From Psammoneis japonica (Eukaryota), in the NCBI GenBank assembly GCA_008632985.1, contig QPGO01000354.1, positions 1 to 44,468 on the forward strand: a stretch of DNA of 44,468 nt, in the 5' to 3' direction. Both the position numbers and the translations under genes were made by a program. Position 1 is the stretch's first letter. Each line of letters starts with the position of its first letter. A model generated the notes under the pieces. That model had not been told where the DNA came from. It did no database searches and saw only the letters and a list, made by a program, of their open reading frames with translations. Shown piece after piece: positions 5,195 to 44,468 of the stretch.

Positions 5195-8100
5195 ATGGTC
5201 CTCACCAGGCAGCAACAAATTGATGGCTTTGAGCACATTTTAGGCACTGTTCTGAATCAAGCTGCAGATAGTCCATTGCGCTCCGCCCTCAGCATTGACG
5301 GCACTGACTCATGCCAGGATCTCTTCACTTTTACTCTGACGCAACTGGATGCCCTGGTTTACAACAAAGCACAGATAGCTGTGTTGATTAGCATGTACAT
5401 GGTAAAAGCACATGGCAGCACCAATGTTGGCAATGACCCCAACTTGTTCACACATGAGGAGTTTGCTGACTGTCGTCTTAGTCCTGAGTGCGTAGCATCC
5501 CTCTCCATTGGCACGGCGCCATCTGCTCCCACTCCAGGCTCATCACCCCCCAAACCCCGTGACCCCGTGTGACTGTAAACAAGAAATCAAATGTGACCCA
5601 CTTGCCTTCACAACTCTTAAGTCCAACAAACAGTGGCACATGTGGCACACCTCTGTCATTGTCCAGGCCCACTCGTGGGACGTTGACTGCATCCTCGATC
5701 TGACATACATGCCCTCTACAGTTGAGGACAAGGCCCTGTTTGATGAACAACAGAAGCACATGTTCACTGGATTCCAACACATCTTGTAGAACAACAAAGG
5801 CAATGCACTTGTGCGTGAACATGTCAGCTCCTCTGATGCTCAAGCAGTGTGTTGAAACCTGTCCAAGTGCACCCTTGCATCTGCTTGCACATCCCTGGAG
5901 TCCTCGACCCTTCTCACATACCTCACCACTGCTCGCCTCAGTGATGGCACCTGGAAAGGCTCCACCCATGCCTTCACACTTCACTGGCAGGACCAACTTT
6001 GCAAGTGTGAAGCTCTTGTCCTGAGTGCGGACCACTTCTCTGCTGGCCAGAAATGTGTCATGCTTGAGAACGCCGTCCAACATCAGCCCGCTCCTCCGCT
6101 TTCAATGGTGGGAACCCGTGCACTACCACCTGGATGATTCGGACTGGCCATCTGAATCTGGTGAATTTTGTGGTCACTTTGTTGGCATTGCCGAACACAT
6201 CAGTCATCAAATGACATTCAAGATTCTTTTTGATGACACTCAGAAGATTCTTTCTCCTGATAAGGAATCTGCTGAACCCATCATCAAATCCCAACACAAC
6301 TCCAAGGATTCACCAGATTAACCAGATGGGGAGGCAATCAGGATGCCCAAAATGCAGGTCTTTGACCCCAAGGACATCATCGGATGCACCTTCCTCATGA
6401 AGCCACAAGAGGATGGACAACGCCACAGAGCCGGCATCGTCAAAGCCGTTGAAGACTATGACTGGAAAGTCGGAGACAACCCGGAACTGGTCAAGTTCAT
6501 TTCCTCCATCAACAATGATGAATACGAGGAAGTCCTTTCCCACAATGACATCATGCACCACATCAAGCAAGAAGACGAGGATTCTACCCTCTGGAAGTTC
6601 CGATGCATTTTCTCACATGAAGGACCATTGAGACCTCATGATCCTTCCTGGAAAGGCTCAAGTTACAATGTCATTCTTGAATGGGAGAATGGGGAGATCA
6701 TGTCCAAACCCCTTGCCATCATTGCCAAGGATGACCCCGTCACCTGTGCCATCTATGCGCGTGAGCACGGCCTTCTAGAAACTGAAGGATGGAGACGTTT
6801 TTGCAAGATAGCCCTTCATCAGAAGAAGCTGTTCCGCATGGCCAACCAAGCCAAGTTACGCTCCTTTCGTACTGTGCCACGATACAAGTATGGGCATGAA
6901 GTGCCACGGGACTACAAGCATGCCATGGCCCTTGATGAGTGCAATGGTGACCGCAAGTGGGGAGACGCAACGGACCTCGAGATGACTCAGATTGATGAGT
7001 GCAAGGTCTTCCATGACTGTGGACATTGCAAGGACTCCAGCACTCCATCAGGACACAAGAAGATTGGGGTGCATCTCGTCTGCAACGTCAAACACGATGG
7101 ATGGCACAAAGCATGACTTGTTGCCAATGGACACCTCACCGATGTGCCCATCGACAGCGTCCATTCTGGAGCAGTGTCTCTCCATGGCATGCAAATGATG
7201 ATCTTCCTGGCCGAACTCAACGAACTAGAGACTTGGGCGACCGACATCGGGAATGCCTACCTTGAAGCTACGACCAAGGAGAAACTGTGCGTCATTGCTG
7301 TTCCCGAATTTGGCAAGCTAGAAGGACACATCCTTGTCATACAAAAGGCCTTGTACAGACTCCGCAGCTCTGGCATCAGGTGGCATGAACGCTTTGCCGA
7401 TTGCTTGCATGCCAAAGGTTTCTTCCCATGCAAAGCCGAACCCGACATCTGGCTGCATAGGAATGGTGACCACTGCGAGCACGTGGCAGTGTATGTGGAC
7501 GACCTGGCCTTCGCCATGAAGAATCCCCAGGCTTTTGTGGAAACTCTCATGGAGAAGTACAAGTTCAAGCTCAAGGGCACTGGACCACTGGAGTTCCATC
7601 TTGGTTGTGACTTCACCCGTGATCCAGATGGCACCCTGTGCCTTGCTCCTCGCAAGTACATTGAGTTCATGGTTGACAACTGTGCACGTCTCTTTGGGGA
7701 GAAGCCCTGCACTGATGTGCTTTCACCTCTTGACAAGGGAGACCACCCTGAGCTTGACACCTCCGAATTACTCAGACCGGATGGCATCCACCAATTCCAT
7801 TCCCTGATTGGCTCCCTGCAATGGGCTGTGTCCCTTGGTCGCATCTGCGGATTCCTCTCCAAGATGCGTCATGGTGCCCTCCGAGTGTGCACCGAGGAGA
7901 CCGACTGTTTGGACCTTCCCATGAATGTGTACGATGGAGCCCAATCTGTCTATGGGGAGTTGGAAGAGCTGCTCCCACAAGATGCACCCAAGCCACTTGG
8001 CAAGTTTGTCACCACGACACACTATGTTGATGCGAACTTGTTCCATTGCATGCTCACCGGACGCTCTGTCACCGGCATCCTTCATTTCCTCAAAAAGTTT

Positions 8101-8566
8101 CCAGCTGATTGGTTTTCCAATAAACAGGCAACAGTTGAGACTGCCACATATGGATCTGAGTTTGTTGCCGCAAGGACATGCGTTGAGCAGATCATTGATC
8201 TGCGCATGTCACTTTACGTTACCTTGGCGTCCCCATTCATGAGAAACATGTTACATGTTCGGGGATGACAAGTCGGTTGTGGATAGTGCTGCCATCCCGC
8301 ACTCCAAGTTACACAAGCAACACATCACCCTCTTGTTCCACCATGTATGTGAGGCGATTGCCTCCAGTTTCCTCAAGTTTCATTTCATCGAAGGTTCTCG
8401 CTACCCACCAGCTGACATCCTCAGCAAGCACTGGGGTTACTCCCAGGTCTGGAACCTCCTTCATCCTCTAATGTTTTGGAACTTCGATCCTGAGGCTTTC
8501 AACCAATCTGACCTCGAATCTATCGCTGTTGACCCCTCAAGCAAACTGGGGAGTGACAGGATTTGA
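5195..8566 (+). pseudogene. gag-pol remnant of Copia copy A
   Basis: ORF pieces 5195..5572, 6343..7116, 7144..8268 and 8255..8566 match copy B, with stops, frameshifts and deletions. Confidence 0.9.
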
Positions 8567-8797
8567 ACAAGATTTTAGTTTATCACACATAATTATGTGT
8601 GCTCTTAGTTCGTCCGCGCGCGCGATGCAGTTTGCTTTCGAGCCACTCGGCTCACAAGAATAATGACAGTAGTCCCGACATCAATGACACCAGTCTTTTG
8701 GCTCCTGTAACGGTCTCTGCATGGAGACTCATCTGCTATTTAGACAGCAGCAAGGAGTTGTTGTTTTCTTCCACCCAGTCATCTTCAATTTCTGTCA
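8554..8797 (+). repeat. 3' LTR (at least its 5' part) of Copia family 1
   Basis: Starts TGACAGGA right after the PPT; matches 16535-16779; clear similarity ends at TTCTGTCA, an imperfect inverted copy of the start. Confidence 0.8.
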
Positions 8798-8842
8798 GAC
8801 GCACAATCTTGTCCTGCTCAATTAATGATGGACTTGCCGTTG

Positions 8843-9026
8843 TGAATAAATGCTACCATGATAGCTAAGAATTGGGTGTAAGACAAGACAGAGTGTTGAA
8901 CAGCATCAACAGGTTCTAGAATTGTGAGATGTTATGCTGCTGGGACCACTAAACAAGCAATGGAGGACCAATCGCCAACAGTGCATAAACTGCTTATATT
9001 CGTGACAGTATATCAGCATTTATTCA
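8843..9026 (-). repeat. 3' LTR of Copia family 2 (184 bp)
   Basis: Direct repeat of 15364-15538; TG...CA with 9-bp inverted termini. Confidence 0.95.
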
Positions 9027-9177
9027 GTCCCCTTGAACTGACACTAGCTCCGCTCGGGCCAGATCGACAGACAAATGCAACCTGATGCTGCCCTATTCCA
9101 GGGTGGTATTTTCATTTTGGGGATGGGAAAAGCCACACCTGCGCAGCAAACCCGTTCAGTTTGTCCCCTTTTGGGAC

Positions 9178-12100
9178 TCACCATAGGACATGACTTATGA
9201 TTTCCCGGAGCTTCGGTCCATGCAACAACTTAGTTAGTATGTCTGCTAAATTCGTGCGTCCGTCTTCCCAAGCAATGCGCACTATTCCGGCGGCTTGTGC
9301 CTCACGAGTCCTGTGACAGGCAATTGCATTGTGCTTCTTCTTTAAAGTGGACTCTGGTTTAGTTGAGTTCTTGAAGACAGCTTCATTGTTGCAGAAAACG
9401 TTAGTGGCCCCATCCATGGGGATTCCGAGCATCCGAAGTTTGTAATGCAAGGCTTCAATTTGCTCCACTGCAGTCTTCATAGCCACGAACTCCGACCCAA
9501 AAGTAGAGGACTCTATGGTGTTCTGCCGCTTAGAGTGACACAAGATGGGCGCTCGTTGGATAAATATCAGGATCCCAGTATGGGGACCTGCGTGTCACAT
9601 GGCATCTGGCGTGATCAGCATCGACAAAGCAAGTAGTGGTTATGCTGTTCCCGTGTGCCTCCAGCACATTTGGCGGCATTGGTTCAGCCACGCCAGGGTA
9701 ATATTCTTCCCAATCGCATTTGGTAAAACGACTCTCGTCAAAGACAGGCTCAGTGTCGTCGAACACTAGCGCAGACTTAGAGTGAGCCTTCAAGCATGCG
9801 AAGATATGGAGCACCTCGTCCAGGTGTCCAACTCGTGGTGCCACTAAGTAGGAGGACGTGAGCGAGACAGCAACAAAAATGTCCACCCGCCCTAGTTCAA
9901 CTACCCATCATAGCACACCAATAAGGCCTTGGCAGCAGTTAGCCGTTTTGGCGTTCAACTCAGGTGAACCGTCCAGTTCAGGCCTATGTCCCGAGCTCAA
10001 GGGCGTCGATGCCTTCGTCGGAAGACGCCCATCAGTTTTTCTTAAGCTCTAATTCGACATCAGCTAATGCCCTTTTGACATAAAGGTCAGAGGACATAGC
10101 CCAACGTGTCTTACTGTCCGAGTCAGACAGCTGGCACTTTCTGATCTGGGCGCCTAAGTACTCTTCTGGCTCGCAGACACTTCCATCCTTGAGCGTGTAC
10201 CTAGAGCTCATATAATCCATGACCTTCTGAGGTTCATGGGAGACACACAACAAGTCGTCCATGTAGACAAGTACATGTTCCCAGCACTTGAAGCCATCCG
10301 GCTTAACCGCAGCTCGCATCCAGACATCCGGGTCAGCCTTACAAGACTCAAACCCAGCATCACGCAAAGTAGCTGCCACATGTTCCCTAAACCTTGCACC
10401 TGAAGACTTGAGACCGTGCAAGGTACGGACAATAATCACTGGCCTTCCCTCATTATGCTTCCCAAATTCCAGGCCAGCAGCAGTGTGACACTTTTCCTTA
10501 GTGTGTGCATTCAAGTAGGCATTCTGAACGTCAGCACTCAGGACCTCCAGGTCATTCAGAGCTGCCACAGTGAATGCCATCCTAACGCTGTCACGCGACA
10601 CCACGCTGGAATAGGTCAATTCCTTGGGTGGATCGGTTTGATGGCCTCTGGCCACAAACCTCGCTTTACGTTGGAGGGTGCTCTTGATGTCAAAGATCAT
10701 ATGACAATCAACATGTTTGTACCCGACCGGCACAGTATCGTCATCGCGGAATTCGAACGCAGGCATGACGTTACGCATTTCCTTCTCAATGGCCTTGAAC
10801 CAGAAGTCAGTCCCCATTCTGTTATCTATCTCCATAGCTTCCTTAACAGATTTCGGGAGTTCAATTCCGAACTTATGCGCACGTTTCCAGTAACGCGACT
10901 TGACTTTCTTCAGGATCCTTGACCTGCAACGCAAGACGTCTCGGACCCACCAGTTAAAAGCTGGTTCACCAGCTACTTTGTTCGCCACAGCGTACTCAGC
11001 AACCTCGACTGGGTTGGATTCCTTCAAATCCTTGAGAGGAACCCAGGATGTAGTCCCATCCTTCCATTCAACTTGCAGGTCCCAGCCTACGGTCATCCTC
11101 CAAGGAGCACGCCTACAGGTCTTAGTCGTTATGTACCCGTCATCAGCCGTTACGGCACGGGCATCACGTCGGTGATCGACTATCTCCTTCATAATCTGGT
11201 GGGCATTCCCTTCAGAGTCGATCTGAGCGAATAGGCTCTCTGCAATTACATTAGCAGCACAGGAATCAGTGGATCCGTCAGGAAATTCCACATCGTGTGT
11301 CCTCGAGTCTAGGACAGGGTTGTCGTTCCTAGCACCAATAGGAATGCCATCGCCATCTCGTTTGCGTGCAATGACCCTAGCATGAGTCAGCTTGCCTCCG
11401 CGTGGTAACATGACTTGAGCTGTGAGATACTCATCTAGCCCCTCCGGGGTGTGCTCATCAGCTTCCGGTTTGGAAGCGTCGGGTTCCACGGGTTCAACGG
11501 CATCGTCCCATTCGTCCATGAAGTTGTCAGGGAGTTCAGGGAAATCAGCACTGGCATCCTGTTCCAGGATGTTAAGCCGTTCGATCAAAGCTTGATCGAC
11601 CGATGCAAGATCCGTCTGGATTGCCAGAGTTTTAAGGTCATCCTCCGGTGTGGCCCATGCATCCTTCCGAATGATGGGTTTGCCTGATTCGGGCAAAACA
11701 ATAAATGCCATGTCATCAGTGCAATTGTCAGCCACTCCGAGCCAACGGCCAATGCACTTCTTCTCGTGTGGGAACTACGCCACAGGCATGCAGTAATAGA
11801 CAGGTTGACACCAATCAAAGAGAGAGGGACGAAATGTCAGGTGTTGAACCTGTCACCTCCTCTTCTGGGACTCGTCCTCCCACATCCGACATGCCATTTG
11901 CAATCATGCATCGGATGTCGCATATCCATTTGGCACCATAGGACCAAAGTCGCCTGTGAGCACCAGTCCGGTGTAGAGTCACGCGGACTCTCTTCTTCAA
12001 CTCATGAATGGATGCCTCGGCTGGGTTCTGCCAGGGGCTGTACGGGGTGGACACCTCCTGGTGTATCCTGTGTTCCTTGCAAATCTCTTTGGTCTGGCCT

Positions 12101-13352
12101 TCCGCCATTTTCAGTGCGCCATCCGACACAAGGACTTGCGGTACGCCAACGTCATGTGTGAATGACATGACGGCATTTGGGTGGTCCTGTTTCCTCTTCC
12201 AAGGATAGAACCTATCATACCCTCTTCCGTTGGTAAATACGCTTCCTCCCATCTTGCCATGTATCGATTTAACCTTTGAAAACATCTGGTCAGAGTAGAA
12301 GCGTCCCTTGACAGCAGGGAACTTCAGCCAAGGGGCTTTCTTCTGGACTTTCCGTTCGGATGGTGTGTAGACACTAAGGACCCCTGCCTGGGTCGTCACT
12401 CTAAGGGTGTTCTTAGCGGCCGTCAGGCCAATGTTCCACCTTTTAGAAAGCATCTCGGGTGTGATGGTTGATGCACGACTCGAGGTCGACAGTGCATGCA
12501 CCCGTTTCCGCTCGGCACAATCCGGGTGGACATCTAGGTCATACCGGTCGTGTAGCCCATCTCCCTCAATGTCATTGTGGGAGACATTTACCTGAGCAAC
12601 CAGGCGGTGATACAGAGAATCGTCGTCATTAGCATCCATAATGACATTCTCGTCGTGACAGGACGTTTGATGTGAATGAATGGAAGCGACACACCTGGTC
12701 GCATTCATCATCGTCGACTGTCCGTCAGACTTTACTGATCCTTGGCGTACACTAGCACATGCACACGCTTCCTCCTTTTGCACCAGGTATCAGTAGAAGG
12801 CTCCCATCTCAGGGGTGATGTGAGTTCCAGCCGGGGGAGGTTCTCCAGATCCTCCTTTGTCGGCTCATGTGAATCAAAGACTGAAGCAACACCTCGTATG
12901 CGTAATGGTATCCTGATCTTCGAGTCAGGGAAAGAAACAGAGTGTGTGCTAGTCGGATCAAACTGGCGAGGGGTGTCGTGGACAGTCAGTCCATTTGCTC
13001 GCAGTTGGTTGGGGCACAGGAGGGTGCCAGTCATCTTGTCCCCGAAAAACATAGCCTCATGGACTAGCAGCAGGCATGGTTGTCCATCAGTTGGATCAAC
13101 CCACACAGTAGCAGCCGTGCAAATAGGAATGTTTTTCATTGGTGCATGCTCTTCGGAGTAAGGGTGTACCACGACAGTTCTGTCGACATCAGAGTACATT
13201 ATAAAATTGGACCCAACAGCACACGTGTCAGCATGCGAGTCCAAATCAGTGGTTGCTTCATCATCTGAATTTCCAGCAGATGACAAAGAGATGTGCATGT
13301 CCTTTAAAGAATCGCTTAGACAAATGTATAGTGCCAGCAGGTTTAGTGACAT
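9178..13352 (-). pseudogene. pol: pol (protease-integrase-RT-RNase H) of Copia family 2, disrupted
   Basis: ORFs 12732..13352 (PR), 11815..12783 (IN: FYSDQMF, LVSDGA, PYSPWQNPAE), 10032..11735 (RT), 9530..9886 and 9178..9543 (RH: ESSTFGSEF, LADILTK). Confidence 0.92.
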
Positions 13353-13386
13353 TCGGTTCTATACCTTTTAGTGCTGGCGCAACTAT

Positions 13387-14817
13387 TCATTCCTCCTTCT
13401 GAGGTTTCTTTTGTACGCTACGTCCGAACTGCGTGCCTGCATTGGCAGCAGGTTTGTCAGACTCTTCGGAGTCCTTTTGTTCATCAGTGGGTTGAGGATC
13501 AGGCTCGGCAACAGCCACTTTCTTAACAGCGCGAGTTTCGGTATCGACCGACTCAGCCTCTGAGGACGCAGCTGCAGCTTTGCGTTTCTTTTCGGCTTTC
13601 TTGGCATCGCGGAGCTTCTTAACTTGTGCTCTTGCTCAGGATTGTCAAGAGCATTCCACTCTTCAATGGGATGATGGCCTGCCCGGATCCTGGGCTTGTC
13701 CTTTTTAGGTTGGTGCTTTCCTCCAGGGTTTCCGTGCCGGTTGTTACAGCGTTGGATGGACGCGATTCCACGAGTGTCAGCATTGCGGTTCTTAGCATTT
13801 TCTACCAGAGTCTTCACACACTGCTGGCATGCTTCGAAATCCGCGAGCTTCGTTGGGTCGCCATCCACTGCACTCTTACCAGTTTCCAACCTAGGGTCGG
13901 AGATACCCTTTAGAAAGTCAGAGACCTTCTTGGTCTCGGCTACCGGTTTATCAAGCTCGGACAAGTCGTTGTGAGCTTTTTGATGGCGCTGAATGTACTG
14001 GTCGAAAGTGAATCGACCCCGTCCGGTGTACTTTGCAGTGGCAATCTGTGCACAAGCATGGTTCTTTCAGGTGGTGGCGGCAGCCGATCCTTCCGCCTGC
14101 CTCTCAAGTGCAAAGAAAGCAGTGCGACCATCGCGATTGCGATTGGAAGGTTTGACAAAAGCCCATCCGGGCCCCCCCTGTCACCAACTTCTTCAAGAGA
14201 TCATACAGGCGTTGCCTGTCCTGCGTGTGCTGAGCTCCTGCAAGTTGAGTAGTAGCAACAAGGTCCTCGTCACTGGCAGTGTGGGTAGCAGCCAACATTT
14301 TGGCGGTGATGTCTTCATGCTCCCTGATTAGGTAGATAAGGGGGCATGCCGGTAACGGTGCTGCGGTGGTGGCGTAGTTCGGTCTCCAGTAACTCTTGGA
14401 AGGTAGGCCAGTCATATAGAGTAGATTCTTGAGCTCCACGGCCGTCTTGGTAGCCGATTCGTCATCTGAGTCTGCTGACTTGAATTGTTCCAGTTCTGTG
14501 AGACGTGCCGTCCATGTTCCAATGACGTTGCCAGCGAAGAGAGCAGCGGTCGGCTCTTGGTTTTGGGCTCTGCGGTGGTCAATCCATGCGCGTAGTGCCT
14601 TGAACTTGCGATTCGCCAGGTATGGGAAGTGGACTTGAGGGTTGGCAGCGGCATCTACGCTTTTCATAATGCCCTCAGTCATGTCAGCAATTTCTGTCAA
14701 AGGGACCTGTTCCAAGTCCTCGATGGCAGCAAAGCCTTGACGGGCTATGTAGGTGTGCGTCTGCGCATTGTATCCACAATGCGTAAGACAAGCGGTAAAG
14801 GCTGCGGCAGCGGCCAT
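13387..14817 (-). pseudogene. gag: gag of Copia family 2, frameshifted
   Basis: ATG 14817; pieces 14104..14817 and 13383..13964 (KKVSDFLKGISDPRL); alternate-frame end NAGTQFGRSVQKKPQKEE* with TGA at ~13387-13389. Confidence 0.85.
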
Positions 14818-15349
14818 GGTGCATCAATAGTTATTCGCGTTTCGACGCGTGAGCATCCACTTGTGTGAGTGGAGAAAAGTGAGAAAAATGTGTGGTTCTC
14901 GTGCCGATTTGGCGGTTTCTACTTAGCGAACCCGCGAGCAGGCGGTGTTACTCCTAAGTAATAATTAGCAACGGACATGTATCCACATGTACAGTGTCTA
15001 AACAGTTTTGACAACGTATTTTGATAATCAAATGTATATGATCAAATAACAGACCTCAATACATAAATCATTATGTTATCTTTATCACGAATGTTTACAT
15101 GTCTTAGCCAACATATTCCATCCACGTGATCAAACATTCCGTCCACTAACATCATGTCTAACGGATCACAGCTCTGGTCTCCAAGAGCATGTTGTTCATA
15201 TCCATGAATATTGATATATATAAAGGACTCAGCGATTACACGAGCAACCATGGGACCAACATGGCGCTTACCGCAAAAATCGATCGATCGCAACGATACC
15301 GTCGTACCGTTCGTGATGCCCGTTCCAGGCGATGAACATCATAGCGTAT

Positions 15350-15363
15350 TGGCTCTGATAAAG
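15350..15363 (-). promoter_or_regulatory. primer-binding site resembling the initiator tRNA-Met complement
   Basis: Minus strand reads CTT-TATCAGAGCCA directly after the 5' LTR; canonical is TGG-TATCAGAGC. Confidence 0.75.
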
Positions 15364-15538: not shown

Positions 15539-15542
15539 GTTG

Positions 15543-32024: not shown

Positions 32025-34591
32025 TCAGGATTGACGTTCATTGTCCCTCTCATCCCCGGCACTAGACCCTTCGGATCCGTCTACGTGCACCGGACGCAAA
32101 CCGTCGTTCTGAGGAGAAGGTTTTTCACTCGCTTTGCTATCCCTGTCATGATACATGGTGTGGGGAGTTGTGTGCCCTCCGCTATTGCGCAGATTCTTGC
32201 GGTTGTGTCTCCGATTCCCGCGTCCGTTTCCTCCGGCTCCACTTTGATAGTCTGGTTCAACGAAATCTTCCACAGGGCCGTGTCCACTGTAGACACCAGA
32301 AGGGTAGTTAATGTTTCTGGTCATGAAGTATGGCGGATTTCCACTGCTTACATGCATTTGCGACACGTTTGGTACGCCACCACTGCGGTGAACATGTGAC
32401 GGAGAAGCGAATCCGCGATGGTGATAAGCATTTTTCCCCGAAACAACCTGGAAAAGAAAGAAATGCATTGTGATCAATCGTGGATCAGAAACAACATGAA
32501 TGGATGGCACAATGTCTGTTGACATACTGGTATCTGTTGGGGACCACCCATCAGCTGTTGCTGATAGCCTCCTTGATGTGGTCCTCCATGTCCATGATGC
32601 ATGGCAACACCACCTCCAAAGTATGCTGCACCAGCAGGTGGGGTATACGAAACCGGCAAGTGTTGCTGCAAAGATGCCTGCCCTTGCTGCAAATGTTGTT
32701 GCGTAGAGAGTTGGTCTTCCGTTTGTGAAACAGGAACACCCGTATCCTCAGGATGCGAAGACTGGACTTGCTGCACCCGCTGGTGCTGTTGAAGTGCCGA
32801 GGTATGCTGGTCTATTCCTTGGTACGGATGAACACCCTGGAAGCGCATCGCCGGCGCGAAACGCGGGGTCACCATGGGCATCATGCCTGGTTGGAAAATA
32901 ACGATACACCGAACACTTCTTGTTGGAAACGTACGATCAGATACGCGGAAACAACGACGAGAAGCAGAAACGGGCAACGTACCTGCGTGCGTCATTTGAG
33001 CTGGAAGCTGCAAATATTGGGCTTGATGCTGCGACTGAATATGTTGCTGCGATACAACGCCTGTCATCTCCCCTCCATCGTCATTAGGGGGAGACACGAA
33101 AACTTCCCCAGCGCCAGCGCCAGGAGTAAAAGTCTTGGCATCAGGATTGAACGTAAAAGATTTCGCGTTTGCGTTGAGCTTAGACTTCGATTTCTCCGGT
33201 GAACAAGATGCTGAACTTTCAGATTCCTTCAACGAGGCTGGTTTGATGTTTGATGCATCATCTGACATATCCATCGTGTCCACCCTTGCCCCAACACTGT
33301 CTAAGTTTGTTTCCTTCTCATCACCTAACCTCTCTCCTCTTTCGCTCATCGCCGACTGATTAGCTGGCAGACAACCACTCTGTTCGTGGAATGTTTTGTC
33401 AGCGGACGTTCTTGTTTTGTCGCCTTTCTCGGGTGGCAACAGCGGTCCAGACCCGTCAGTGTTTGATTCCGCAGAAAACCCCGGTGGCAAGGGTTTGGGT
33501 GCTGTCGAATCTGCCTTGGCCACAGCTGCGTAGTTCATCTTTCTTTGATCCTTGCGCATTACGCTAGGGGGCACAGCTTCAACGACGTTTTCACTACTAC
33601 CTCCACGACTGCGCGTCTCGTTATCCACCGCCAAAACTCCGGAATATTTATCTTCTTCATCGTAGTCTCCTTCAACGATATGGCCTCGTTCCTCTGATAC
33701 GTGAATATTGGAGCTGGTGGTGCTTTCGATCTCTTTCGCAAGTCTTTCTGCCTTTCGCAACTCCATCCGGTTGATCTGAGATTTATCTAGCGCCGTCGTG
33801 TAGAGATTTTCATCAAAAGTGGCTCGGACATCAAACAGGTCTTCGTTGGCTTTAAACTGATCCCAATCACCTATGGTACTTCTGTTTGTGCCTGCCAAGT
33901 CAGTTGAAAAATAATTCTTCCGTGACCCACCTTCTTCTATAGACCCGTTCACTTTATCGTGACGGTTATTCGACGCAGAAAGACCATCAGATGTCCACTC
34001 ACTCCCAGCCGCTACCAAGCGGTCATCTCTTGCATCCTTGGCAACGGCAATTTCGGAATCCGTCGCGAAATAAGACGTCTCTTGTTGATTTGTAGTCGTT
34101 CCAGAGTTCGGAATTCCGTTATTACTGACTTTGTCAAGACGCATGCTTTTAACATGCACACTAGAGACGCTTTCTGCACGGATAACGATTGTGCTGCCGT
34201 CAACAAAATTTTCCACCTTTCCCTCAGAAACTTTGCACGCTTTTACGACATATCTGTTTCTAACATCAGGGGGGTGAGCGACAAAAGGAGTGAAAGTGTG
34301 GAGCACTCCTTCGATTACAACGCCATCTGTGCGAGTGATAGTAAGACGCTGACCAACCATAGAAAGCGCTAGCTGCAAGAACCGCTCCCTAAGCGCACTT
34401 TGGTGCCCAATTCCATTTCTGGGCGCTGAATCACCCATAACCAACTCTGAAGCCAACTCGATCAACTGCGATCCCATTCCAGGAGGTGGCACTATCGAGT
34501 CTGAACGATCGGCATTGGCGGTGCGTTGAAGTGGGCGAGTCCAGGCGTTGCCAGCAGTTTCCCCCGAACCACCCATACCTGTGGTCGACAT
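32025..34591 (-). CDS. ATXN2: Ataxin-2 / Pbp1 family RNA-binding protein (Lsm, LsmAD, PAM2), ~796 aa, three coding exons
   Basis: Lsm (MVGQRLTITRTDGVVIEGVLHT), LsmAD (WDQFKANEDLFDVRATFDENLYTTALD...EERG...DEEDKYSGV), PAM2 (SKLNANAKSFTFNPDAKTFTP). Proposed exons 34591-32983, 32886-32528, 32447-32025 with GT-AG introns of 96 and 80 nt; frame is preserved. TTGTAG just before the ATG and GTAAGC near 34749 suggest a further upstream intron, so the start is tentative. Confidence 0.9.
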
Positions 34592-35123
34592 ACCTACAAC
34601 AGACAGATTACAAGATACACTTATGAGAGAGGGAATGCGCGCTACGCAGCACTCCACACACTTGCACCAGCAGTCACGACCAAGAACAGCAAACACGAGC
34701 TGCGGCGTTGGCAGCGCAACCCATTTTACGACGATGAGCAGGTGCTTACCACGAGCACACAAATAAATGTGCCGCACAAGCACTAGAGGCTGCTCACAGT
34801 GCTGTTCTTTTGCTCCTGTGAGCTGCTGGAGTACGTATCCTCCAAGCGCGGTCAGGAAAAGGATTGGGTCTGCCAATCACTGCACAACATTCTTTTTGTA
34901 CAGTACAGTACATACATTGTTACGATAGCGCGCGGTAGATAGAGTAGAGAGGCGAGGCTCGTCCGTTCGTCCGGTCTGACCTACTAGGGCCCTACCGGGG
35001 TCTGGACAGCTGGCTGTCTGAAGAAATTTGTGTATGTAGGATTTGTACTGAACAGTCTGTCGTCGGTAGGTGAACGCTGGCTGAATATGGTACCCTACTA
35101 CTAGAGCACACACCGCGGTAATA

Positions 35124-35626
35124 AGCCATGTGCACTGGTACAAAAATCACGTAGAAATTTTACGTAGAAAAAATTATAAAAATTAGGGTTTGGGCCGATT
35201 TTTTTCTCGTGCTTCTACCGTGCTTCTCTGCTCCACCGACGCCTCAAGGAATCGTTTTCCCCTGAAACCATTGACACTTTACATGATGACTTTTACATAA
35301 GTAACACGATTCTGTGCGTGAACACTTCAAAATTCCATTTTCAGAAATTCGATCAACACTTCCCTACGGTCCCACCACGGTAAACATTTTCCAATGAAGG
35401 AATTTTGCCGAACGGTGGACATCGTCGTGTTTGTCATCAAAAAGTAAGTACGCAAAGTGTCAACCGTTATGACTGAAATCGATTCCTTGAGGTCGTGGCC
35501 TATTTTTCGCAAAGCACGGGAAAAGCACGACGAACAAGATATTCTACGCGAATTTTCTACGTGAGTTTTGTACCAGAAATCGGCCCAAACCCTGTTTTTC
35601 GGGACTCATAACCCCTGCACATGGCT
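35124..35626. mobile_element. MITE / foldback non-autonomous DNA transposon (~503 bp)
   Basis: Termini AGCCATGTGCA / TGCACATGGCT with TA on both sides; several long subterminal inverted blocks; no coding capacity. Confidence 0.85.
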
Positions 35627-35698
35627 TATAGGCCTTGCCTTATTACTGGTACGTCTTTTTCATAGTCTACTATCCTACGGTACGGTACCGTACGTTGA

Positions 35699-36255
35699 AA
35701 TGACTCTACTTCCTCTACTGATGGATCCCTTGTTGTTTCTTCGCTTAACAACGATGGCATCTTCCTACTCCCCTTCACCGTCGATCACCTTGGTGGTCTT
35801 GGCTACTTTGCTCACCGCTTACTCTTTGGCCCTACGTCTTCTTCCATCTGCTCTCAGCCCAAGCCACCCTGGTCCTCTTCCTCTGACTTTCGTCACTCCG
35901 TTGCCTCCTGCTCCGCCTTCCTCTATGCTTTGTCGTCTCCGTCTGCAATCCTTCCGTCCGCTGACTTCGCATGGCGTCGCCTGTCCGCTGATCGCTTTGG
36001 GAGCACCTACCGTACAGCCTCCCCATCCCAGTGGGCCACCCAAACCCTTGGCTACAATGTCGTTCTTCGCCTTTCTACGCACATCCTCCGATTCACTTCC
36101 TCCCTCCCTGCTCCCTCCTCACCTATACCTTCCTCTAAACGCCCTTTGTCCTGTGTCCTTTGGCCCTTCTACTCTACCGTCACTACAGCTACCTCCGTGC
36201 CTCCCTCTGCTGTTCCCTTCTGCTCTACATAGGCTCTCTTAATTTTCTATTTTAA
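35699..36255 (+). mobile_element. 5'-truncated CRE-like non-LTR retrotransposon (C-terminal end of ORF)
   Basis: Frame 35699-36232 reads ...GIFLLPFTVDHLGGLGYFAHRLLFG...RFGSTYRTASPSQWATQTLGYN..., resembling the tail of the restriction-like endonuclease region of diatom CRE elements; T-rich 3' end. Confidence 0.6.
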
Positions 36256-36259
36256 AAGT

Positions 36260-38170
36260 GCACCACTGACAAAACCCCAAACGCACAGACGGATAGAACT
36301 TCTTTGTGCAGTGGCTGTCCAGACAGACCCCCCGACCCTGGTTGGGGAAGCAACGTTGGTGTCATCATCTGTCTGCAAGGTGTTGGTTTGCGTTGACTGT
36401 CACATTGTGGTGTCTTTGTTTGCGAAAGTGTGCTCAATGACTAGGAGACTCTCTTCAAACGACAAGCATGTTTTGCAACAAAATGGCAAATCGGGGCATG
36501 AAAGAACATGCACAAGTCAAATCTGCTGAGAAGAGTGTTTGAGAGTGTTGCCATCATGATTCATCATTGAAAGTTCTTCATAAACACAACAGATCCAGGC
36601 TGTATTCTTGCACATCTTGGAAGAACCCTTGGGCACATTTGTGTGGCGCACAAAGAACATGACCCTTCCACCCCTTGGGTGTGGACACCTTGGGGGACAT
36701 CTTTGAAAGTGAGACTGTTGAAGAAAGTTGTGTAGAATTTGCACTTAAACAGTCTGTCAATCAGTGCGATTGGGGCATTTGGGAATGCTGGACAGATCCT
36801 AACACGTGTTTTCTTGTGCGCACAAGTTGCACTGGGAAAAAACCCCAAATGCACTAGCAATCAGACCGCCTTCGACGATCTCACTTCCAAAGATGCCCCC
36901 AACCTTGTTGGATCTCCTTGGTGGTGCACCTGAGAACAACTGGAAACAACCTGCTGGTGATGATCTGGACAACAGCGGGAGCTGAGAAAGAAGAGCAGAA
37001 CATTGTCAGTTGTGATTGCCGAGGTTGTTCTGCATCTCATCTTGCTTGTACCTCAACACAAAAAGTCACTTGACAGTGTGTTTTTTGTTGAATGCTATTT
37101 GACGACACTTCCAAATTTCCTTCAAGCATCGCTGATGATTGATGACCCCCAGTCACAGCACAATTTATTTGATTGTTCTTGTTGATCAACCAGTTCTTGT
37201 CAGTTGGAAAGCACTGTCACAAGGCTTCACAGAAGGGGCAGGCTCACCACCAGAGCTTTTGGAAGATGAAGGCCCTGTCATGGCCTCAAGGACACAGTGA
37301 CAAATGACCTGTTTGTCCCACTGTGGCCCAGATTTTTCTGGGCTCCTGCAGGCTTTGGACATGTTGTTTTGTGTGTGGCATCCAGAGAATCAAGCTGTTC
37401 TGCTGCTGTCTGATCCCATCCAATGTCTGCATTTTTTGCATGATTTCCAATGGTTGTGAAGCACACCTCTGTCAAACATCACAATGACAAGCAAATTGGT
37501 TGGTGTGTTTGATGCAGGATGTGCCATGGATCATGTTTAAGCTGCTGGGACTGCAGAGATGTGAATCTTGCAAGTGCAGTGCTTGCCAATGTTGGGGTGA
37601 GTTGCAGGGCACAGGGCAATCTTTTGGCACATCTTTCAGTTAAATTGTTTGCAAGTAAAACTGCAGAAGAACAGGCCTGGGAATGAAAGGAGACCCCTTG
37701 ACACTCAGCACAGGTCCACTTGGAGTGGCCTTGGCGCTGGACATAAAGTGAACATGGATGGAATGCCAGCCAAGGGCCAACAATCAGGAGGCAATTGATG
37801 CATGAAAGCCTTTTGGGATTTCTGCCATGTTGCATGTTTTGTCATTCGAGCATGAGAGATTGGAAAGCATTCCTGCAGTGATGATCAGTTAGGTGCAAAC
37901 TGTGACAGAGTGTTGTGTCTCTTTGGCATGAGCAACAGTGCATGTAAATGTGCATGCATCGATTGGCCATCAATGTGTGCACAATGGACCATGATGACAG
38001 CATGTGCAGGGTCACATGATGGCATGCAAATGGGATCGGAGAAACTTTGATGTGATTAAAATTTAACCCAATGCAAAATGCAAATTAACAGGATGATTCA
38101 CAAGATTCCCCATGACATGATTTTTTCTAGACAACAAACTGGTGCCACAATCTCCACAACACACATGACT
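36260..38170. other. heavily decayed, unclassified repeat-derived DNA
   Basis: Very few TA or CG dinucleotides, abundant TGCA/CATG, no credible ORF. Confidence 0.45.
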
Positions 38171-38224
38171 TTTAACACCCCACCATCAGCAATTTTGGGT
38201 GATCTTCTGAATGCCATTTTGCAT

Positions 38225-38838
38225 GTGTGCATCATGCACACCCGGAGAGGGGCCAAAGGTGCTGGCCCACCCTGCATTGCCATGGACCCCTGCATTGATG
38301 ACAAGTGGGGCACTCTGCCTCATGTTGTCCTTGCCAGAGGAATGGCACAATGCTGTTTCTGACCTGCAGGATGACACCACCACACTAATCTCTTTGACCA
38401 GTGCAGCAACTTTCACCACCATCACATTGTGAAAAATGTCATGCTTTCAGACACCCTCCTTGATGATCATCTGCTTTGAACATCTGAGTTGTTTGTGAGC
38501 ATCACAAGGATGACATTGCACCCAAGGATCCCAACTTTGAGTCCCTCCACCCCTTGCTTCAGCTTCATCCTGATGGACACTGTGCACCACACCTTCTGTT
38601 GCACCATACAGCATGCTGGTGTGCCTGCTGGTGCACACTTGAAAGAAACACGCAAATCTTCTAACCTGGCCATGAACATGCATCACCACAATGAACCCAT
38701 TGCCACTGACACTGTCCACTTGGACACTCCCACTCTGTCGATTCTGGTTGCTTCAGTGCTCAACTCTTTGTTGGCATGGAATCTCCCATCATGGATGTGT
38801 TTGGCACCAAGACTGACAAGGAGTTTGTCAATGCACTG
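38225..38838 (+). mobile_element. Copia family 1 fragment (copy C; protease-to-integrase region)
   Basis: Aligns by eye to ~27500-28270, e.g. CCCAAGGATCCC..TTTGAGTCCCTCC and GGCACCAA.ACTGACAA.GA.TTTGTCAA. Confidence 0.85.
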
Positions 38839-38869
38839 GGGAAGCTTGGGCTCAGTGGATTGAGTGGGT

Positions 38870-39390
38870 GTGCCAGAAGATTAAGAACAATGGTCCAAGA
38901 AGATTGTGGCATTAAATGTGAGCCCATAACCACACCAAATCCACAAGCAAACCCCATAATTGAGCGTGTGCATCAAGTGCTGGGCAACACAATACGTACA
39001 TTTGATTTACAAAATGCACCCCTGGATGCTCAGAATCCATTTGAGGGAATGGTGTCAGCAGTGGCCATTACAGTACGTTTGACTTACCATGCTACTGTGC
39101 AAGCTACACCGGGACAATTAGTCTTCAACAGAGACATGATTTTAACATCCAACACTACGTCACTGACTGGAAGTTTATCCAGAAACGTAAAGACACAACA
39201 AACAAAAACAATGCCAGTGTAGAGAGAATGCATGGCGCACTCCATACACACACAGAGTGGGAGAGAAGATCCTGCTCTACATAGAGAAAAACTCTCAAAA
39301 ATGTGTCAAACGTGATGATGTCATTGACACTGTGAACATCCATTGAATAATTCCATTTAACAAATGACTCTAATGTGCACTTGGGGGTAA
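38870..39390 (+). pseudogene. Ty3/Gypsy integrase C-terminal fragment
   Basis: GIKCEPITTPNPQANPIIERVHQVLGNTIRT...TYHATVQATPGQLVFNRDM. Confidence 0.85.
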
Positions 39391-39690
39391 GACAATCGTG
39401 GATGCGTACAACGGTCAGGTCAATCACACAGAATTGATGGGAAGTCTAAAGATGCAAATATGATCAACAGATGATGGTGACACAACATAAGATGTCAACA
39501 TTGATCATATCTGGACAATCTGCTGTCACGATTAGATTCTCTGAAAGGAAGGCCTTTGCTCTGTAGGAGCAGCACCACAGCTTCAGGCCATTGAGAACTC
39601 CTTCAGAGAATCCCAAAATTGTAGTGTAAAATCTAATCTCATAATTTCCACTTTTCATGATTTGTTCTACTTTCATTTACCCTCGTTCTA
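39391..39690 (-). repeat. dispersed non-coding repeat, copy 2 of 3 (inverted, partial)
   Basis: Reverse complement of ~15620-15910. Confidence 0.8.
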
Positions 39691-39699
39691 TTTTGAATG

Positions 39700-42560
39700 A
39701 GCCTTGGACCCCATCTGATGGGCTGGCTGTGACCTCATTGGTGCATGACGGCACCTGATGTAAAATTTGGAGCACTACACCAAGCTTCTGAACAAGCATC
39801 ATTTGTCACTGTTAAAGAGCAGCACAGTGTTAGAAGCACAAAACAAAAGGCAAACCATTGCTTTTCACATCAAATTTGGGGATGTCTTTGACAAAATCAA
39901 ACTGTTCCACCACCACATCCGGCTTCACCCACATGGCACTCCGGTGATGCACTAAGAAGTGACTGACCTTGAGTCCACCACATGTGTCAACCGCAACTGT
40001 CATGTTGGCCTCGCCCTTTTTTCAGATCAGAAAATTGACATGAGGCATGACATGGCTGACACTTGGCTCAACATCGGTGACCCGCACAGATGGTCTTTTG
40101 AGTGCTTGATGCACTGATGGAGTTAGAAAGCACAAGAAGCAAATGGGAGGTTCACTGTTGTCCTTCTTCAGCACATCAGTGATTGAAGGCAGCTCAGCAG
40201 TTGTTTTCTGCCACTTTGAATTGCCAAGAAGAGCCTGAAAGCATGCCTTGTGCACAGTGGCAGCAGCCGATGGTGTGGACATCATAGATGCCAAATCAGC
40301 CATGTGGCTCAAATTGAAAGCCTTGAGCTTCCCATGGCTGATTTGCTTAACCCTGAGGCAGTGAAGCATGGGCTGGAACCATTGGGGGTGGTGGGACTGC
40401 AGGCAAAGCAGCTGCAGAAGCAGGGGGCAATGCATGAGGGACTGGAGCTTGATGTGGGTTAGACCACATCTTCTGTGGACCACCACCTGCCAGTGGCAAG
40501 AACCTCTAGCATGATTCCATGAAGGTCGTGCGGCCTTTCTTTGCCAAAGCCTGCACTTGAGGGTCCAAATGGTAAGAAGGACACTGACTCCAATTGTGCT
40601 TGAACTGGTGGTCATGATCACGGGGGTGTCCACTGCATCCCCAACACTCTGTGTGTGGGCAGAGCAAACCGGCAGCATTCTGTGGGGACTCTTCAGCCAT
40701 GTTTGCAAAGGCTCTGCTTGGCCCAATTCAGGCACAGACATGACAAAAGTGCTAACTTCTTGCTGCGCGACAGCTTCCCACACATCCTGCTGCCAACTGT
40801 CTTGTTGGACTTGAACCAGGCCTTCCCCGAATTCTGCCAGTGCCATGCCATCTGGCAGAAGGGCCTCAAACACATTGGTGGGGGCACGTGATGGAGCCTG
40901 AGTTACATGACAAGCTTGGTGCTGAATTTGCTTGAGTTGACATTTGAAAGAGGCAGCTGCACTATGCTTGAAGAACGAGTACAAACAAAAGTAGAATAAA
41001 GCATGAAAAGTGGAGATTATGAGATTAGATTTTACTCAATCATTTTGGGTTTCTCTGAACGAGTTCTCAATGGCCTGAAGCTTCTGTGTTGCTTCTACAG
41101 ACAAAAGGCCTTTTGGAGAATATAATCATGACAACAGATTGTCTGGATACGATTGCCATTGACACGCAAGGTGTCAACATCATCAATCGATCGTATTTGT
41201 AATTTTTGAACTAAGTACAGAGTTAAATTCCGATCAACTCTGTGTGGGCGTTCTGTCCTTTGTATGCATCCACGACTGTGGTACGGTACGATTGACACAC
41301 ACATAATATATAATTATGATTATGCATGTAACAGTCGCATGCTGCACAGCCGCTGTGCAAGCGGCATGCAGTCTTGTGTCAGCTTGAGTGTTTGTCTCGT
41401 TTGCAGGTGCCGGGGGCACATGATGTGGCAGTTCTTGCAAAACAGCTTGGTGGCAAATGTCAGGATGCCATTTGGTGAGATTGCACAAGCTTGCGAGGTC
41501 GGTGAAGCAACTTGACACAATGCCGTTCCACTGACAACTCCACATGTCCTCTGGTGGAAGGATTGAACTGAGCTTGTTTTAAATTTTGGATGGAGGTCAT
41601 AGTGTAAAACGAGTCACGAACAGAATTGCCAAGGAATTCTGAGTGCAACAAAAACCTTGTGAGACAAAAACAACACCAATGGAAGCAGCACACAAAATTG
41701 TGCTGAAAGATATCCAAACTGACAAGGAGGGTGCTGTTGGGGCATCTCAACTGACCAACAGTGGGGAATGTGTCTCTGATGTGTGCCTGCAACATTCACA
41801 GGAACAGCACTGGATCAAGCAAAACATTGGCAGCAAACACTGCAGGAAGAACTTTGTGACAGTTGTCAACGTGGGCTGGGTCATCAATCGCAACCTGCGG
41901 AATCGCAACTGCCATGTTGAGTTTTTGTTGGATTGGGAACATGACCTTGTTCAACACATCTGCATCCAGGTTGAGCACCGCTGTGCATGTGTTGACAGTC
42001 AACTTAAAGGTGCAGTGCCATGATGTGTGACAAATGTTTGCGACCATGTTCGCTGCACTGGCCGGAGGCATGGTGAGGTGTTCTCCAAGATCGTTGCAAA
42101 TTGCTGGATCAGAGTGCACGAATGTACCCACCAGCACTTCCGTGGTGATGACAGGCTTCTCAACACCAGCCACATTGTCACAAAGATGCTCTAATGCCCC
42201 ATTCACTTCTTGTGGAAGATGTGCACAATCCAACCAACTTACAACATCTCCAATTTTGTCTAAGAGGAAGCAACCACATTGCTCAAGATGCCAGAAAGCG
42301 TGTGCTGAAAATGCTGCTCACGGTCCTGAACACTTAAGGAGGGAAGCCCACCCAGCTTCACTGGAAGTTGAAAAGCACAGTTATTCCATGAAGCCTGCAT
42401 TAAGTTCAACACTTCATCAGGCGGACAATCCACATGTCCACCTCCGTGGACAGAATGACTGCAACCAGCACTCATTGCAACAGATGGGAGATTCAACAGC
42501 TGCCACTGGGAGGGATTCTATGCAACATGGGCATGCTGTCAATGTGGATGGTTGCTGAGA
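39700..42560 (-). pseudogene. decayed LTR-retrotransposon (probably Gypsy) gag-protease fragment, interrupted at 40901-41333
   Basis: Zn-knuckle-like CWGCSGH...HNWSQCP...DPQVQALA (40506..40700) followed by protease-like MPHVNFLI...VAVDTCGGL near 39980. Confidence 0.55.
40901..41333 (+). repeat. dispersed non-coding repeat, copy 3 of 3 (solo-LTR-like)
   Basis: Ends (A)GTTACATG...CATGTAACA are inverted copies; core shared with 15543-15971. Confidence 0.75.
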
Positions 42561-42699
42561 TGTGAGTGGATAGAGAGCTGCATGAGGTGACACTGTGTCA
42601 AGGTGTCAAGGAATGGTGTCAGCCTCATGGTCCCACTGTGTCACTTCCGTCTTGCTCTGGCCTGTCAACAGACAGACCATGGTGTGCTGTCATTACAAA

Positions 42700-44468
42700 G
42701 CTCTGTTCTGTTTCAATGAGTTGGAGGACATTCACTCCAAGTTGGGAATGATTTATAAGAAGTGTCACTCAGATGAACTTCAATTGAAAACCGACATCTG
42801 TGAGAAAGTGCTGGATGAAGGTAAATGGAGTTCATTCAAGTCCAAGCATTGCAAGGACGGCATGATGGGAAACACATGGTCCACCAGGAGGATCTACCAA
42901 GACTGCAAATTGATCTTCTGCAGCAGACAAGACCCTGACCATGAAGGTGCAGGGTGGCAAGTTCTTCCCTGGTGACTGTGGGAAGTGCAGCCAAAAAGGT
43001 CACAAAGCTGAGTTTTGTCCCATCAAGAAAAACACTGAGTCGAAGAAATTTGAAGGTGAGTGTCACAATTGCGGCAAGTGTGGACATGGGGCGAGTGACT
43101 GCTGGAAAAAGAAGAAGAAGAAGAAGAAGAAGGACAAGAAAGAGGAAGACAAGAAGGAGACAAACGAGGTCACACTTGCAGTGTTTGACTCAGTTGACTT
43201 GGTTGAGGAGGGCAAGGACCCTGTTCCTGATTCTTTCTTCAACACCTTCAGTGCTGAGCCTGCAGTTCATGATGATGAACTTGAGAAGGAACTTCAGAAG
43301 TGGAATGCAGAGGATGAATCCCCTCAAGGACTCAAAGGTCACATCACATGGATGCTGTTGTGGTGTGAGCAGAACGAGCTGGACAATGAAGATGATGATG
43401 ACAAAGATGCCGTGAGTGTGCCACCGGCCACCGCTAGAAGGTCCTTTTATTTTCAACAAGGATGAAGATGAAAGTGTCCCACCCTTGGAAGTTTGATGTG
43501 ATTCTGATGGCAACTCAGATGGCATTGAATCGATTGAATTCAAAAGGGCATTTGCTTGCACTGCAAGAAGCCTGGACATGAGTTCTGCAGTCCTTTCTAA
43601 GAGTTTGAGGATGACAACCTGGATGGAGAGGACAAGGAGGAAAGTGTCCTGCCCTTGGAACTTGGATGTGATTCAGACAGCCACTCGGATGGTGTTGAAT
43701 CAATCAAATTCAAGGACAAGTGTGTGCACTGCAAGTTGCTCAGACACACATTCTGCAATCCTTTTGAAGAGCATGACAGTGGAGCACTAGACACTGAGAA
43801 CAATGAGGACAGTCTCCTGCATCTGAACTCTGAACCACTGTCATGACTCAGATTCTTTGTCTGACTCTGAGTTTGAGTGTGATGCAGATGACAAAGATGA
43901 CATGACATTGACATCCAGTGCCCAACATGAGCCAGAATGTGGTGGTGTTCAGCTGCTGCTGGACTCTGGGTTGACAGCACACATCAAGAGGTCTCCTCAA
44001 GGGAAGAGGAACCTCAAAGAGGTCAACCAGGTCATGAAGGATGCTCACAATGACTGTTCAGTGGCAAAGCTCCAGGGAGATTTTTCATTCATGCATTGGG
44101 AAGGGGGCAGCACAGTGGTCATCACTGAGATGTGCATCCAGCCAAATTTCTCCCACAATGTTGTGAGTTTGACAAAGTTGTTTGAGAAGAATTTTCATCT
44201 TGAGCCCCAAAACTAACTCCAAATGAGCCATTGTTCTCCAGTGCCCTGATGGCACTGAATTCATTTTTGAAAAATCTTTAAAAGATGGGCTGCTTTTACA
44301 AGGAAGTGTAGTCACTGATGGATGCTTCCGAAATGACTGCAAATGTGTCTGATGGACAGAAAGTTGGGCAAAAAGGGTTGGACAAGGAAGTCCATGTCAA
44401 CCATGCACACAGTTTGTTGAATCACATGGGTGAATGCATGATGAAAATGGCAGTGGCTAATTTTGGAT
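42700..44468 (+). pseudogene. decayed Ty1/Copia gag-protease-pre-integrase (third family), running off the right edge
   Basis: Two CX2CX4HX4C knuckles (CGKCSQKGHKAEFC, CHNCGKCGHGASDC), protease LLDSGLTAHI, NVVSLTKL, pre-integrase HAHSLLNHMGE. Left boundary approximate. Confidence 0.8.
43109..43132 (+). repeat. (AAG)8 tract encoding poly-Lys in gag
   Basis: Read directly. Confidence 0.9.

Follow-up and report, generated by a model that had tools for sequence, protein, structure and literature searches.

TpA erosion on both strands of diatom transposons suggests a wider, still unexplained way of disabling invading DNA

The DNA considered here, positions 1 to 44,468 of contig QPGO01000354.1 of Psammoneis japonica (GenBank assembly GCA_008632985.1; these 44,468 nucleotides are called the window below), has a guanine-plus-cytosine content of about 50% and consists in its bulk of transposons, whose copies bear a mutational signature in which TpA has been turned into TpG or CpA. 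An earlier note on this DNA had proposed such a process, acting beside the deamination of CpG, and our analysis upholds it: in four window elements, 28 of 111 conserved tyrosine codons read histidine or cysteine, versus 11 A>G or T>C changes at 827 of the same codon positions in non-TpA contexts. The changes have a polarity, are specific to the TpA context, fall symmetrically on the two strands and arose independently in separate copies. Inside the window they appear to be confined to transposon sequence, the comparison being composition and one host gene. The reading that we favour, with moderate confidence, is that a host process of the diatom lineage converts transposon TpA into TpG or CpA, in addition to the decay of methylated CpG, and does so most likely through the deamination of adenine. 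The erosion of TpA on both strands in diatom transposons thus suggests a wider, still unexplained way of disabling invading DNA.

The four elements are two copies of one Copia family, A (4792-8427, plus strand) and B (25107-31214, plus strand), a Copia element of a second family (family 2; 8843-15538, minus strand) and a long interspersed nuclear element (LINE; 16992-23906, plus strand). The changes from tyrosine to histidine or cysteine amount to 8/29 in copy A, 6/34 in copy B, 5/17 in family 2 and 9/31 in the LINE. The pooled comparison with the other contexts is highly significant (Fisher P=2e-19, or 9e-18 if the two events common to A and B enter only a single time), as is that of each element (P<=2e-4). 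A sense-strand A>G gives Tyr>Cys, one on the opposite strand Tyr>His, and in the window there are 14 of each; in the depleted metagenome loci described below the numbers are 26 and 21. A strand bias tied to the sense of the element, which the earlier note had named as a result that would refute its proposal, is thus absent. Its companion, a rate of A>G no higher after T than after the other bases, was not seen either: the rate is raised after T and not after A, C or G. In the window elements, AAN>AGN changes came to 6/203 (3/48 in A, 2/60 in B, 1/28 in family 2, 0/39 and 0/28 in the LINE). The host gene, a homologue of ataxin-2, has kept its conserved tyrosines (7/7), with an observed-to-expected ratio (o/e) of 0.55 for TA and of 0.92 for CG.

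The dinucleotide composition was compared along the whole window, and the TA o/e is 0.23-0.61 in the transposon segments against 0.64 in the non-transposon part. The values are 0.64 (CG o/e 0.84) at 1-4790, where no transposon domain was found, 0.61 (0.78) in the internal region of family 2, 0.49 (0.76) in the LINE, 0.43 (0.72) in copy B, 0.33 (0.49) in copy A and 0.23 (0.24) in the old transposon relics at 36243-44468, in which TG and CA reach 1.81 and 1.69. These relics had been described as nearly free of TA and CG, and they do hold 133 TA for 587 expected (z=-25.9, mononucleotide shuffles); their stop triplets are 453 TGA versus 158 TAA and TAG together (101 and 57). Over 44 one-kb bins, TA o/e and (TG+CA) o/e are correlated at -0.80, and the excess of TG+CA equals -0.003 plus 1.05 times the TA deficit plus 0.88 times the CG deficit (R2 0.80), these coefficients being approximate because the two deficits are collinear (r 0.82). 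The surplus of TG and CA matches the TA and CG deficits about one to one, so that the missing TA is accounted for as TG or CA. The decay of methylated CpG occurs alongside (the CG o/e of the relics is 0.24, and 23 of the 55 polarised changes discussed below are of the CpG type) and does not explain the loss of TpA. Family 2, the LINE and two metagenome loci (L030 and L033, see below) show the two to be decoupled.

The TA-depleted blocks have abrupt borders, near 31950 and near 36400. The former adjoins the 3' end of the ataxin-2 gene and belongs to a block at 31100-31900 almost devoid of TA and CG, with 2-3 TA and 0-4 CG per 300 bases at 31100-31699. From 31490 onward its contig depth of 32.4 is that of a single copy, and the block is probably an old relic without similar copies left. 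In the relics at 36243-44468 we recognised a Copia integrase fragment (38261-39222), a gag zinc knuckle (42914-43465) and a protease DSG motif near 43960. Their resemblance to the clade of copy B is limited to 38261-38838, and the most depleted parts were characterised by composition alone. The parts at 37331-38628 and 41874-44468 have few similar copies. The single conserved tyrosine column of the integrase fragment reads cysteine. The flanking bases of surviving TA sites gave no clear extended motif. Among the predicted proteins homologous to 38710-39222 (P0346-P0495), 13 of 97 have cysteine at the conserved tyrosine column, and their arginine columns contain glutamine, histidine and cysteine variants. 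Such mutated copies may be widespread in public collections of predicted proteins.

Copies A (4792-8427) and B (25107-31072) were found by self-comparison to be 79-87% identical. In copy A four conserved tyrosines have become cysteine and four histidine (of 29; control contexts 3/212), and in copy B two and four (of 34; control contexts 4/272), whereas the reverse changes are almost absent from the two copies taken together (His>Tyr 1/47, Cys>Tyr 0/15). At codon junctions, first-position A>G was found at 3 of 12 sites after T and at 6 of 194 after other bases. Arginine has given way to His, Gln, Cys or Trp at 13/35 positions in A and 15/53 in B. Since the two copies separated, A has lost six tyrosines and B three that are private to each, in line with the earlier claim that the changes arose independently per copy and on both strands, and two losses are common to both. 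The polarised non-synonymous changes since that split (25 codons with multiple changes being left out) comprise 23 of the CpG type, 9 TpA losses, 3 TpA gains, 6 other transitions and 14 transversions. In the comparison of A with B, the conservation is 0.60 for TA, 0.45 for CG and 0.74-0.85 for the other dinucleotides. The KYGYE ancestor that had been deduced from KYGHE in one copy and KCGYE in the other is the consensus of the relatives (Tyr in 30/39 and 23/39), the first tyrosine having been lost in B and the second in A. Of the seven motifs in which the earlier note had seen displaced tyrosines, five could be placed, and all five lie on conserved tyrosine columns: TLHGLKSSG (Tyr in 100% of homologues), KCWEHVLVY (91% and 93%), DHCEHVAVY (79% and 71%), SCHDR (98%) and RAEAC (60%). 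IACHR falls outside the open reading frame analysed, and DLCCDN off the columns with at least 60% tyrosine.

That family 2 represents a true minus-strand insertion is indicated by the GTTG target duplication (8839-8842 and 15539-15542), the tRNAiMet-type primer site TATCAGAGC adjoining its 5' long terminal repeat (LTR2, 15364-15538) and the polypurine tract adjoining its 3' one (LTR1, 8843-9026). The alignment of the two LTRs gave the six substitutions (G/A, C/T, A/G, G/A, G/A and T/A) and the indel, of nine nucleotides, that the earlier note had counted, with one further C/T beside the indel that depends on the alignment. Four of the differences oppose TA to TG or CA and one CG to CA, and the TG/CA state is always in the copy at 8843, which holds 14 TA; LTR2 has kept TA at the four sites and holds 17. 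Four of the five transitions thus fall on TA positions (P=0.006). TA would be the ancestral state at these sites, a polarity that we infer, as two copies cannot give the direction. In the reverse transcriptase (RT) reading frame of the internal region (9027-15363; RT at 10032-11774), compared with 120 homologues, 5 of 17 conserved tyrosines have changed (four to His, one to Cys) while all 19 conserved arginines are kept. In the pooled homologues the corresponding tyrosine changes are 36/1920, and none of these homologues has three or more. In the LINE, compared with 104 homologues, seven conserved tyrosines have become cysteine and two histidine, of 31; among the homologues Tyr>Cys amounts to 14 and Tyr>His to 97 of 2783.

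The most heavily altered copies came from a metagenome scan with the RT of copy B, which returned 51 loci of 37-77% protein identity. A column was scored if it had at least 10 metagenome relatives, of which at least 60% agreed, the sequence under test being left out, and the locus L051 and the relic segment, with fewer than 100 scored columns each, were set aside. Across the 51 loci the TA o/e extends from 0.13 (L033), 0.27 (L030) and 0.31 (L016) up to 1.02, most values being 0.6-0.9, and is not tied to the CG o/e. Most relatives thus have an ordinary TA content, and the clade is not TA-poor by nature. In the three most depleted loci, 47 of 71 conserved tyrosines have changed (26 to Cys, 21 to His) against 4/511 in the control contexts, which are made up of Asn>Ser or Lys>Arg 1/107, Asp or Glu>Gly 3/166, His or Gln>Arg 0/77, Phe>Leu 0/52, Ser>Pro 0/63 and Cys or Trp>Arg 0/46. 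In the 43 loci with a TA o/e of at least 0.59, several of which are near-duplicates, Tyr>Cys is 11/1141 and Tyr>His 14/1141. First-position A>G at codon junctions was seen at 16 of 29 sites after T and 9 of 192 after other bases in the depleted loci, and at 57 of 948 and 77 of 2705 respectively in the loci of normal TpA content.

Two of these depleted loci, L030 and L033, are sister copies (94.5% identical) with a CG o/e of 0.74-0.80 alongside their TA o/e of 0.13-0.27. They differ at 25 single sites by TA against TG or CA and at 18 double ones by CA against TG, the remaining differences being 8 of the CpG type, 10 other transitions and 6 transversions, and at eight conserved tyrosine columns one has histidine where the other has cysteine. 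Each copy must therefore have been hit separately. The choice between TG and CA is random along the copies (runs test, P 0.59 and 0.64). In L033, 15 of 19 conserved tyrosines have become His or Cys and two are kept, the tyrosine of the YVDD motif being among those lost, and the 486 aligned codons (6-1463) contain no stop. L030 (2-1591) and the relics at 36243-44468 are, beside L033, heavily TpA-mutated sequences whose frames stay open, the loss of TAA and TAG bringing no stop with it. Four other loci (L008, L010, L037 and L043) have a TA o/e of 0.50-0.54 and yet 0-1 such tyrosine changes each; mild TA poverty is thus possible without the hypermutation footprint.

Several observations weigh against the reading proposed here. 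The changes private to copy B were polarised against the majority of its family, obtained from contigs of a sequencing run aligned on 25000-44468, a site being scored when the window letter disagreed with at least 60% of the depth. Copy A carries the majority letter at all 22 of the listed copy B sites that align to it, and this polarity is therefore sound. The summed contig depth of the family, 7000-41000 versus 32 for single-copy DNA, suggests hundreds of copies. The 474 private sites comprise 126 G>A, 138 C>T, 56 A>G, 63 T>C and 91 transversions, and among the 40 listed, nine create a TpA, one destroys a TpA and four are CpG losses. The two counter-examples that the earlier note had itself recorded, TGG>TAG at 26463 and CAA>TAA at 29559, are real and belong to these private changes. 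Since its burst, no TpA loss has been running in copy B, whose decay from then on is ordinary GC>AT, and its tyrosine losses are older than the burst or come from an episode. The earlier proposal of A>G at TpA in silenced repeats therefore holds for the copies as such and fails as a continuous process. Likewise, the stretch at 34877-36242, upstream of the ataxin-2 gene, is repeated (depth 1900-4800 versus 32) and undepleted (TA o/e 0.92, CG o/e 0.98), so that the signature is not on every repeat; of the repeat targeting suggested earlier, the depletion of the elements stands, while a targeting to repeats as such would go beyond it. In a three-copy repeat, the 87 singletons include eight TpA losses and eight gains, a small sample. 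Between A and B, the TG/TA and CA/TA differences (3.9% and 4.1% per G or C site) are not above those of other contexts, and the unpolarised differences are equally compatible with uniform rates of G>A and C>T, although this pair by itself gives no direction of change. Finally, the host-gene control consists of seven conserved tyrosines of one gene itself under selection, and the consensus of the homologues was drawn from predicted proteins together with loci among which there is partial duplication.

The A/B differences would be compatible with there being no special process, the families being TA-poor through codon usage or selection against UpA and their copies differing by ordinary transitions on a background rich in TG and CA, and the nearly intact copy B is indeed already TA-poor. 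We nevertheless regard this as very improbable: the relatives of the same clade mostly have a TA o/e of 0.6-1.0, conserved tyrosines, that of the catalytic YVDD motif included, have become His or Cys in copies without sign of selection, sister copies have His and Cys at the same columns with reverse changes almost absent, and the relics, degraded as they are, are the lowest in TA. Equally improbable is an error-prone repair in heterochromatin by an enzyme like DNA polymerase eta, one of the suggestions of the earlier note, which would write G opposite T at WA motifs and produce A>G changes at the TA steps of both strands. In the literature on somatic hypermutation this polymerase is known for a WA>WG hotspot, which includes AA, while the AA context is not raised here: AAN>AGN is 1/107 against 26/71 for TAY>TGY in the depleted loci, and 6/203 in the window elements. 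The sparing of AA and the palindromic nature of the TpA target both argue against it.

The timing of the changes is the ground of the main rival, to which we grant a minor but real chance: TpA adenines would be deaminated on the RNA or the single-stranded complementary DNA (cDNA) of the element before integration, copies would arrive already mutated, and nothing would happen later in the chromosome. The post-burst changes of copy B, with no trend towards TpA loss, agree with it, as do the two tyrosine losses common to A and B, hence inherited, and the fact that the affected elements of the window and the metagenome loci are all retroelements. Editing of sense RNA, however, would give Tyr>Cys only, while the strands are equally affected (14:14 and 26:21), and the same-strand runs of clustered editing of single strands are absent; strand symmetry and the lack of such runs argue against sense-RNA editing and likewise against an ADAR (adenosine deaminase acting on RNA) or APOBEC type of editing in clusters on single strands. 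The family-2 LTRs disagree with each other at TA sites, something that late cDNA editing could also bring about, and in the chlorarachniophyte Bigelowiella natans, according to a recent preprint, the targets are integrated DNA viruses without a reverse transcription step (Mettrop et al., bioRxiv 10.64898/2026.01.13.699255). The LTR differences and this precedent both speak against editing before integration. As for the base concerned, A>G and a T>C on the opposite strand look the same in sequence data, and strand symmetry and a palindromic target fit either chemistry, so that the T of TpA could instead have been enzymatically modified, for example to a 5-hydroxymethyluracil-type base, and mispair with G, giving T>C read as A>G opposite. 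A base of this type is known in dinoflagellates. We hold such an origin to be improbable, literature searches having turned up no such base in diatoms and the authors of the sole experimental precedent reading it as adenine deamination (10.64898/2026.01.13.699255).

The host process that we favour would strike TpA sites singly, the strand being a matter of chance, and would be active in episodes, some copies being hit, almost to saturation in some cases, and others spared. No stop codon would be created by it, TAA and TAG being lost or turned into TGA, so that reading frames would stay open and the proteins would be disabled by the replacement of tyrosine with cysteine or histidine and, after T, by A>G at the first codon position. 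Chemically, the likeliest event, also proposed for the signature in B. natans, is that an enzyme deaminates the adenine of TpA in duplex DNA, which would yield hypoxanthine, read as G. The enzyme, its action on integrated DNA, its choice of targets and its role in defence are what we infer from this pattern. More tentatively still, diatoms, and perhaps protists of the SAR group (stramenopiles, alveolates and rhizarians) generally, might possess an enzyme that reads the palindromic TpA in the duplex DNA of silenced elements and edits either strand. It would be a defence similar to the repeat-induced point mutation (RIP) of fungi with the opposite chemistry, saturating single copies, leaving their frames open and leaving footprints that are common in environmental data.

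The layout of the window may be completed as follows. Pfam matches to RVT_2, the Copia-type RT, lie at 7117-8268 (plus strand) in copy A, which is an older, internally deleted copy of its family, at 10032-11774 (minus) in family 2 and at 29562-31214 (plus) in copy B, which belongs to a very abundant family and is nearly intact, with two stops and one frameshift. The LINE, encoding an endonuclease and an RT in a single reading frame with two internal stops, matches Exo_endo_phos at 18810-20342 (plus); these are the only two Pfam domains found in the diverged elements of the window. The family-2 insertion is framed by a direct repeat of 260 bases (8553-8811 and 16534-16793, 90% alike), the space between them holding only about 1 kb besides family 2, and this repeat may represent the two LTRs of a small, older element into which family 2 landed. 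Self-comparison of the window also brought out several relic repeats. An abundant repeat is present in inverted orientation at 39387-39689 and 40972-41279 (about 74% alike), a third, direct copy being located at 15605-15914; the two inverted arms are joined on opposite strands by contigs of the sequencing run. The host gene (32474-34876, minus strand) is a homologue of ataxin-2/Pbp1 without introns, with LsmAD, SM-ATX and PAM2 domains. A search with its protein (8000 candidates scored) gave 170 proteins at E<=0.001, with identities of 30-48%, and those bearing an organism name are all from diatoms (Nitzschia, Seminavis, Cylindrotheca, Fistulifera, Pseudo-nitzschia, Skeletonema and Bacillariaceae). 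Fragilaria, Fistulifera and Cylindrotheca are among the sources of homologues of the window transposons. A dinoflagellate origin was rejected, a search for the spliced-leader motif giving no match and the host gene pointing to diatoms.

If the signature reflects directed editing, a phenomenon known from one chlorarachniophyte extends to the diatoms, a major and genetically tractable part of the phytoplankton, and the search for the enzyme becomes practical through the comparison of species with and without the signature. A DNA editor specific for TpA would merit attention for its own sake. In addition, hypermutated dead transposons keep long open reading frames, from which gene callers will predict proteins, and the dating of insertions by LTR divergence will be biased at TpA sites.

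Among the known systems, the RIP of fungi changes C to T mainly at CpA and thereby creates TpA and stop codons. The signature described here resembles it in that context-specific transitions disable repeated mobile DNA copy by copy, and differs in that TpA is destroyed and the frames stay open. RIP itself was rejected as an explanation, the affected repeats having a TA o/e of 0.23-0.49 and copies A and B showing His>Tyr at 1/47 and Cys>Tyr at 0/15. The deamination of 5-methylcytosine at CpG has the same products, TG and CA, and is itself present in the window, but its target is not TpA, and family 2 has kept 19/19 arginines while losing 5/17 tyrosines. The A-to-I hyper-editing of double-stranded RNA by ADAR and the editing of retroelement cDNA by APOBEC enzymes leave clusters of changes on one strand and a bias that follows the sense of the element. 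They share with our signature a deaminase-type base change aimed at retroelements, whereas here the direction is random along the copy, the strands are symmetric and the AA context is spared. ADAR-type hyper-editing was accordingly discarded, on the runs tests (P 0.59 and 0.64) and the AAN>AGN count in the depleted loci (1/107). A point in common is the preference of ADAR for a U before the edited A, noted in the preprint on B. natans (10.64898/2026.01.13.699255).

The closest relative of the signature is found in that rhizarian. According to the preprint, mutation-accumulation lines of B. natans acquired 231 mutations in an integrated giant virus and virophage, of which 230, every one at TpA, were A>G or T>C; the hypermutation was seen in some lines only and spared the rest of the genome, TpA-poor coding sequences of the genome are enriched for RT and DDE domains, and the authors propose a DNA deaminase similar to ADAT, the adenosine deaminase acting on tRNA (Mettrop et al., bioRxiv 10.64898/2026.01.13.699255). 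Diatoms are not mentioned in the preprint, and our full-text literature searches found no report of the signature in diatoms; one apparent match (PMC9258296) proved irrelevant. Common to the two cases are transitions at TpA to TpG or CpA according to the strand, a depletion of TpA coupled to the gain of CpA and TpG, foreign or mobile sequence as the part affected, and a patchy, episodic activity. The two differ in the host, here a diatom, hence a stramenopile, and in the targets, here LTR and LINE retrotransposons and there integrated viruses; some copies here are near saturation, CpG decay runs alongside, and the evidence is comparative. The novelty seen in the earlier note is thereby reduced by the preprint and stands for diatoms. 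TpA hypermutation has already been described, very recently, in B. natans, and what is new here is the diatom host, the retrotransposon targets, the near-saturated environmental copies and the clear separation from RIP, whose polarity is opposite.

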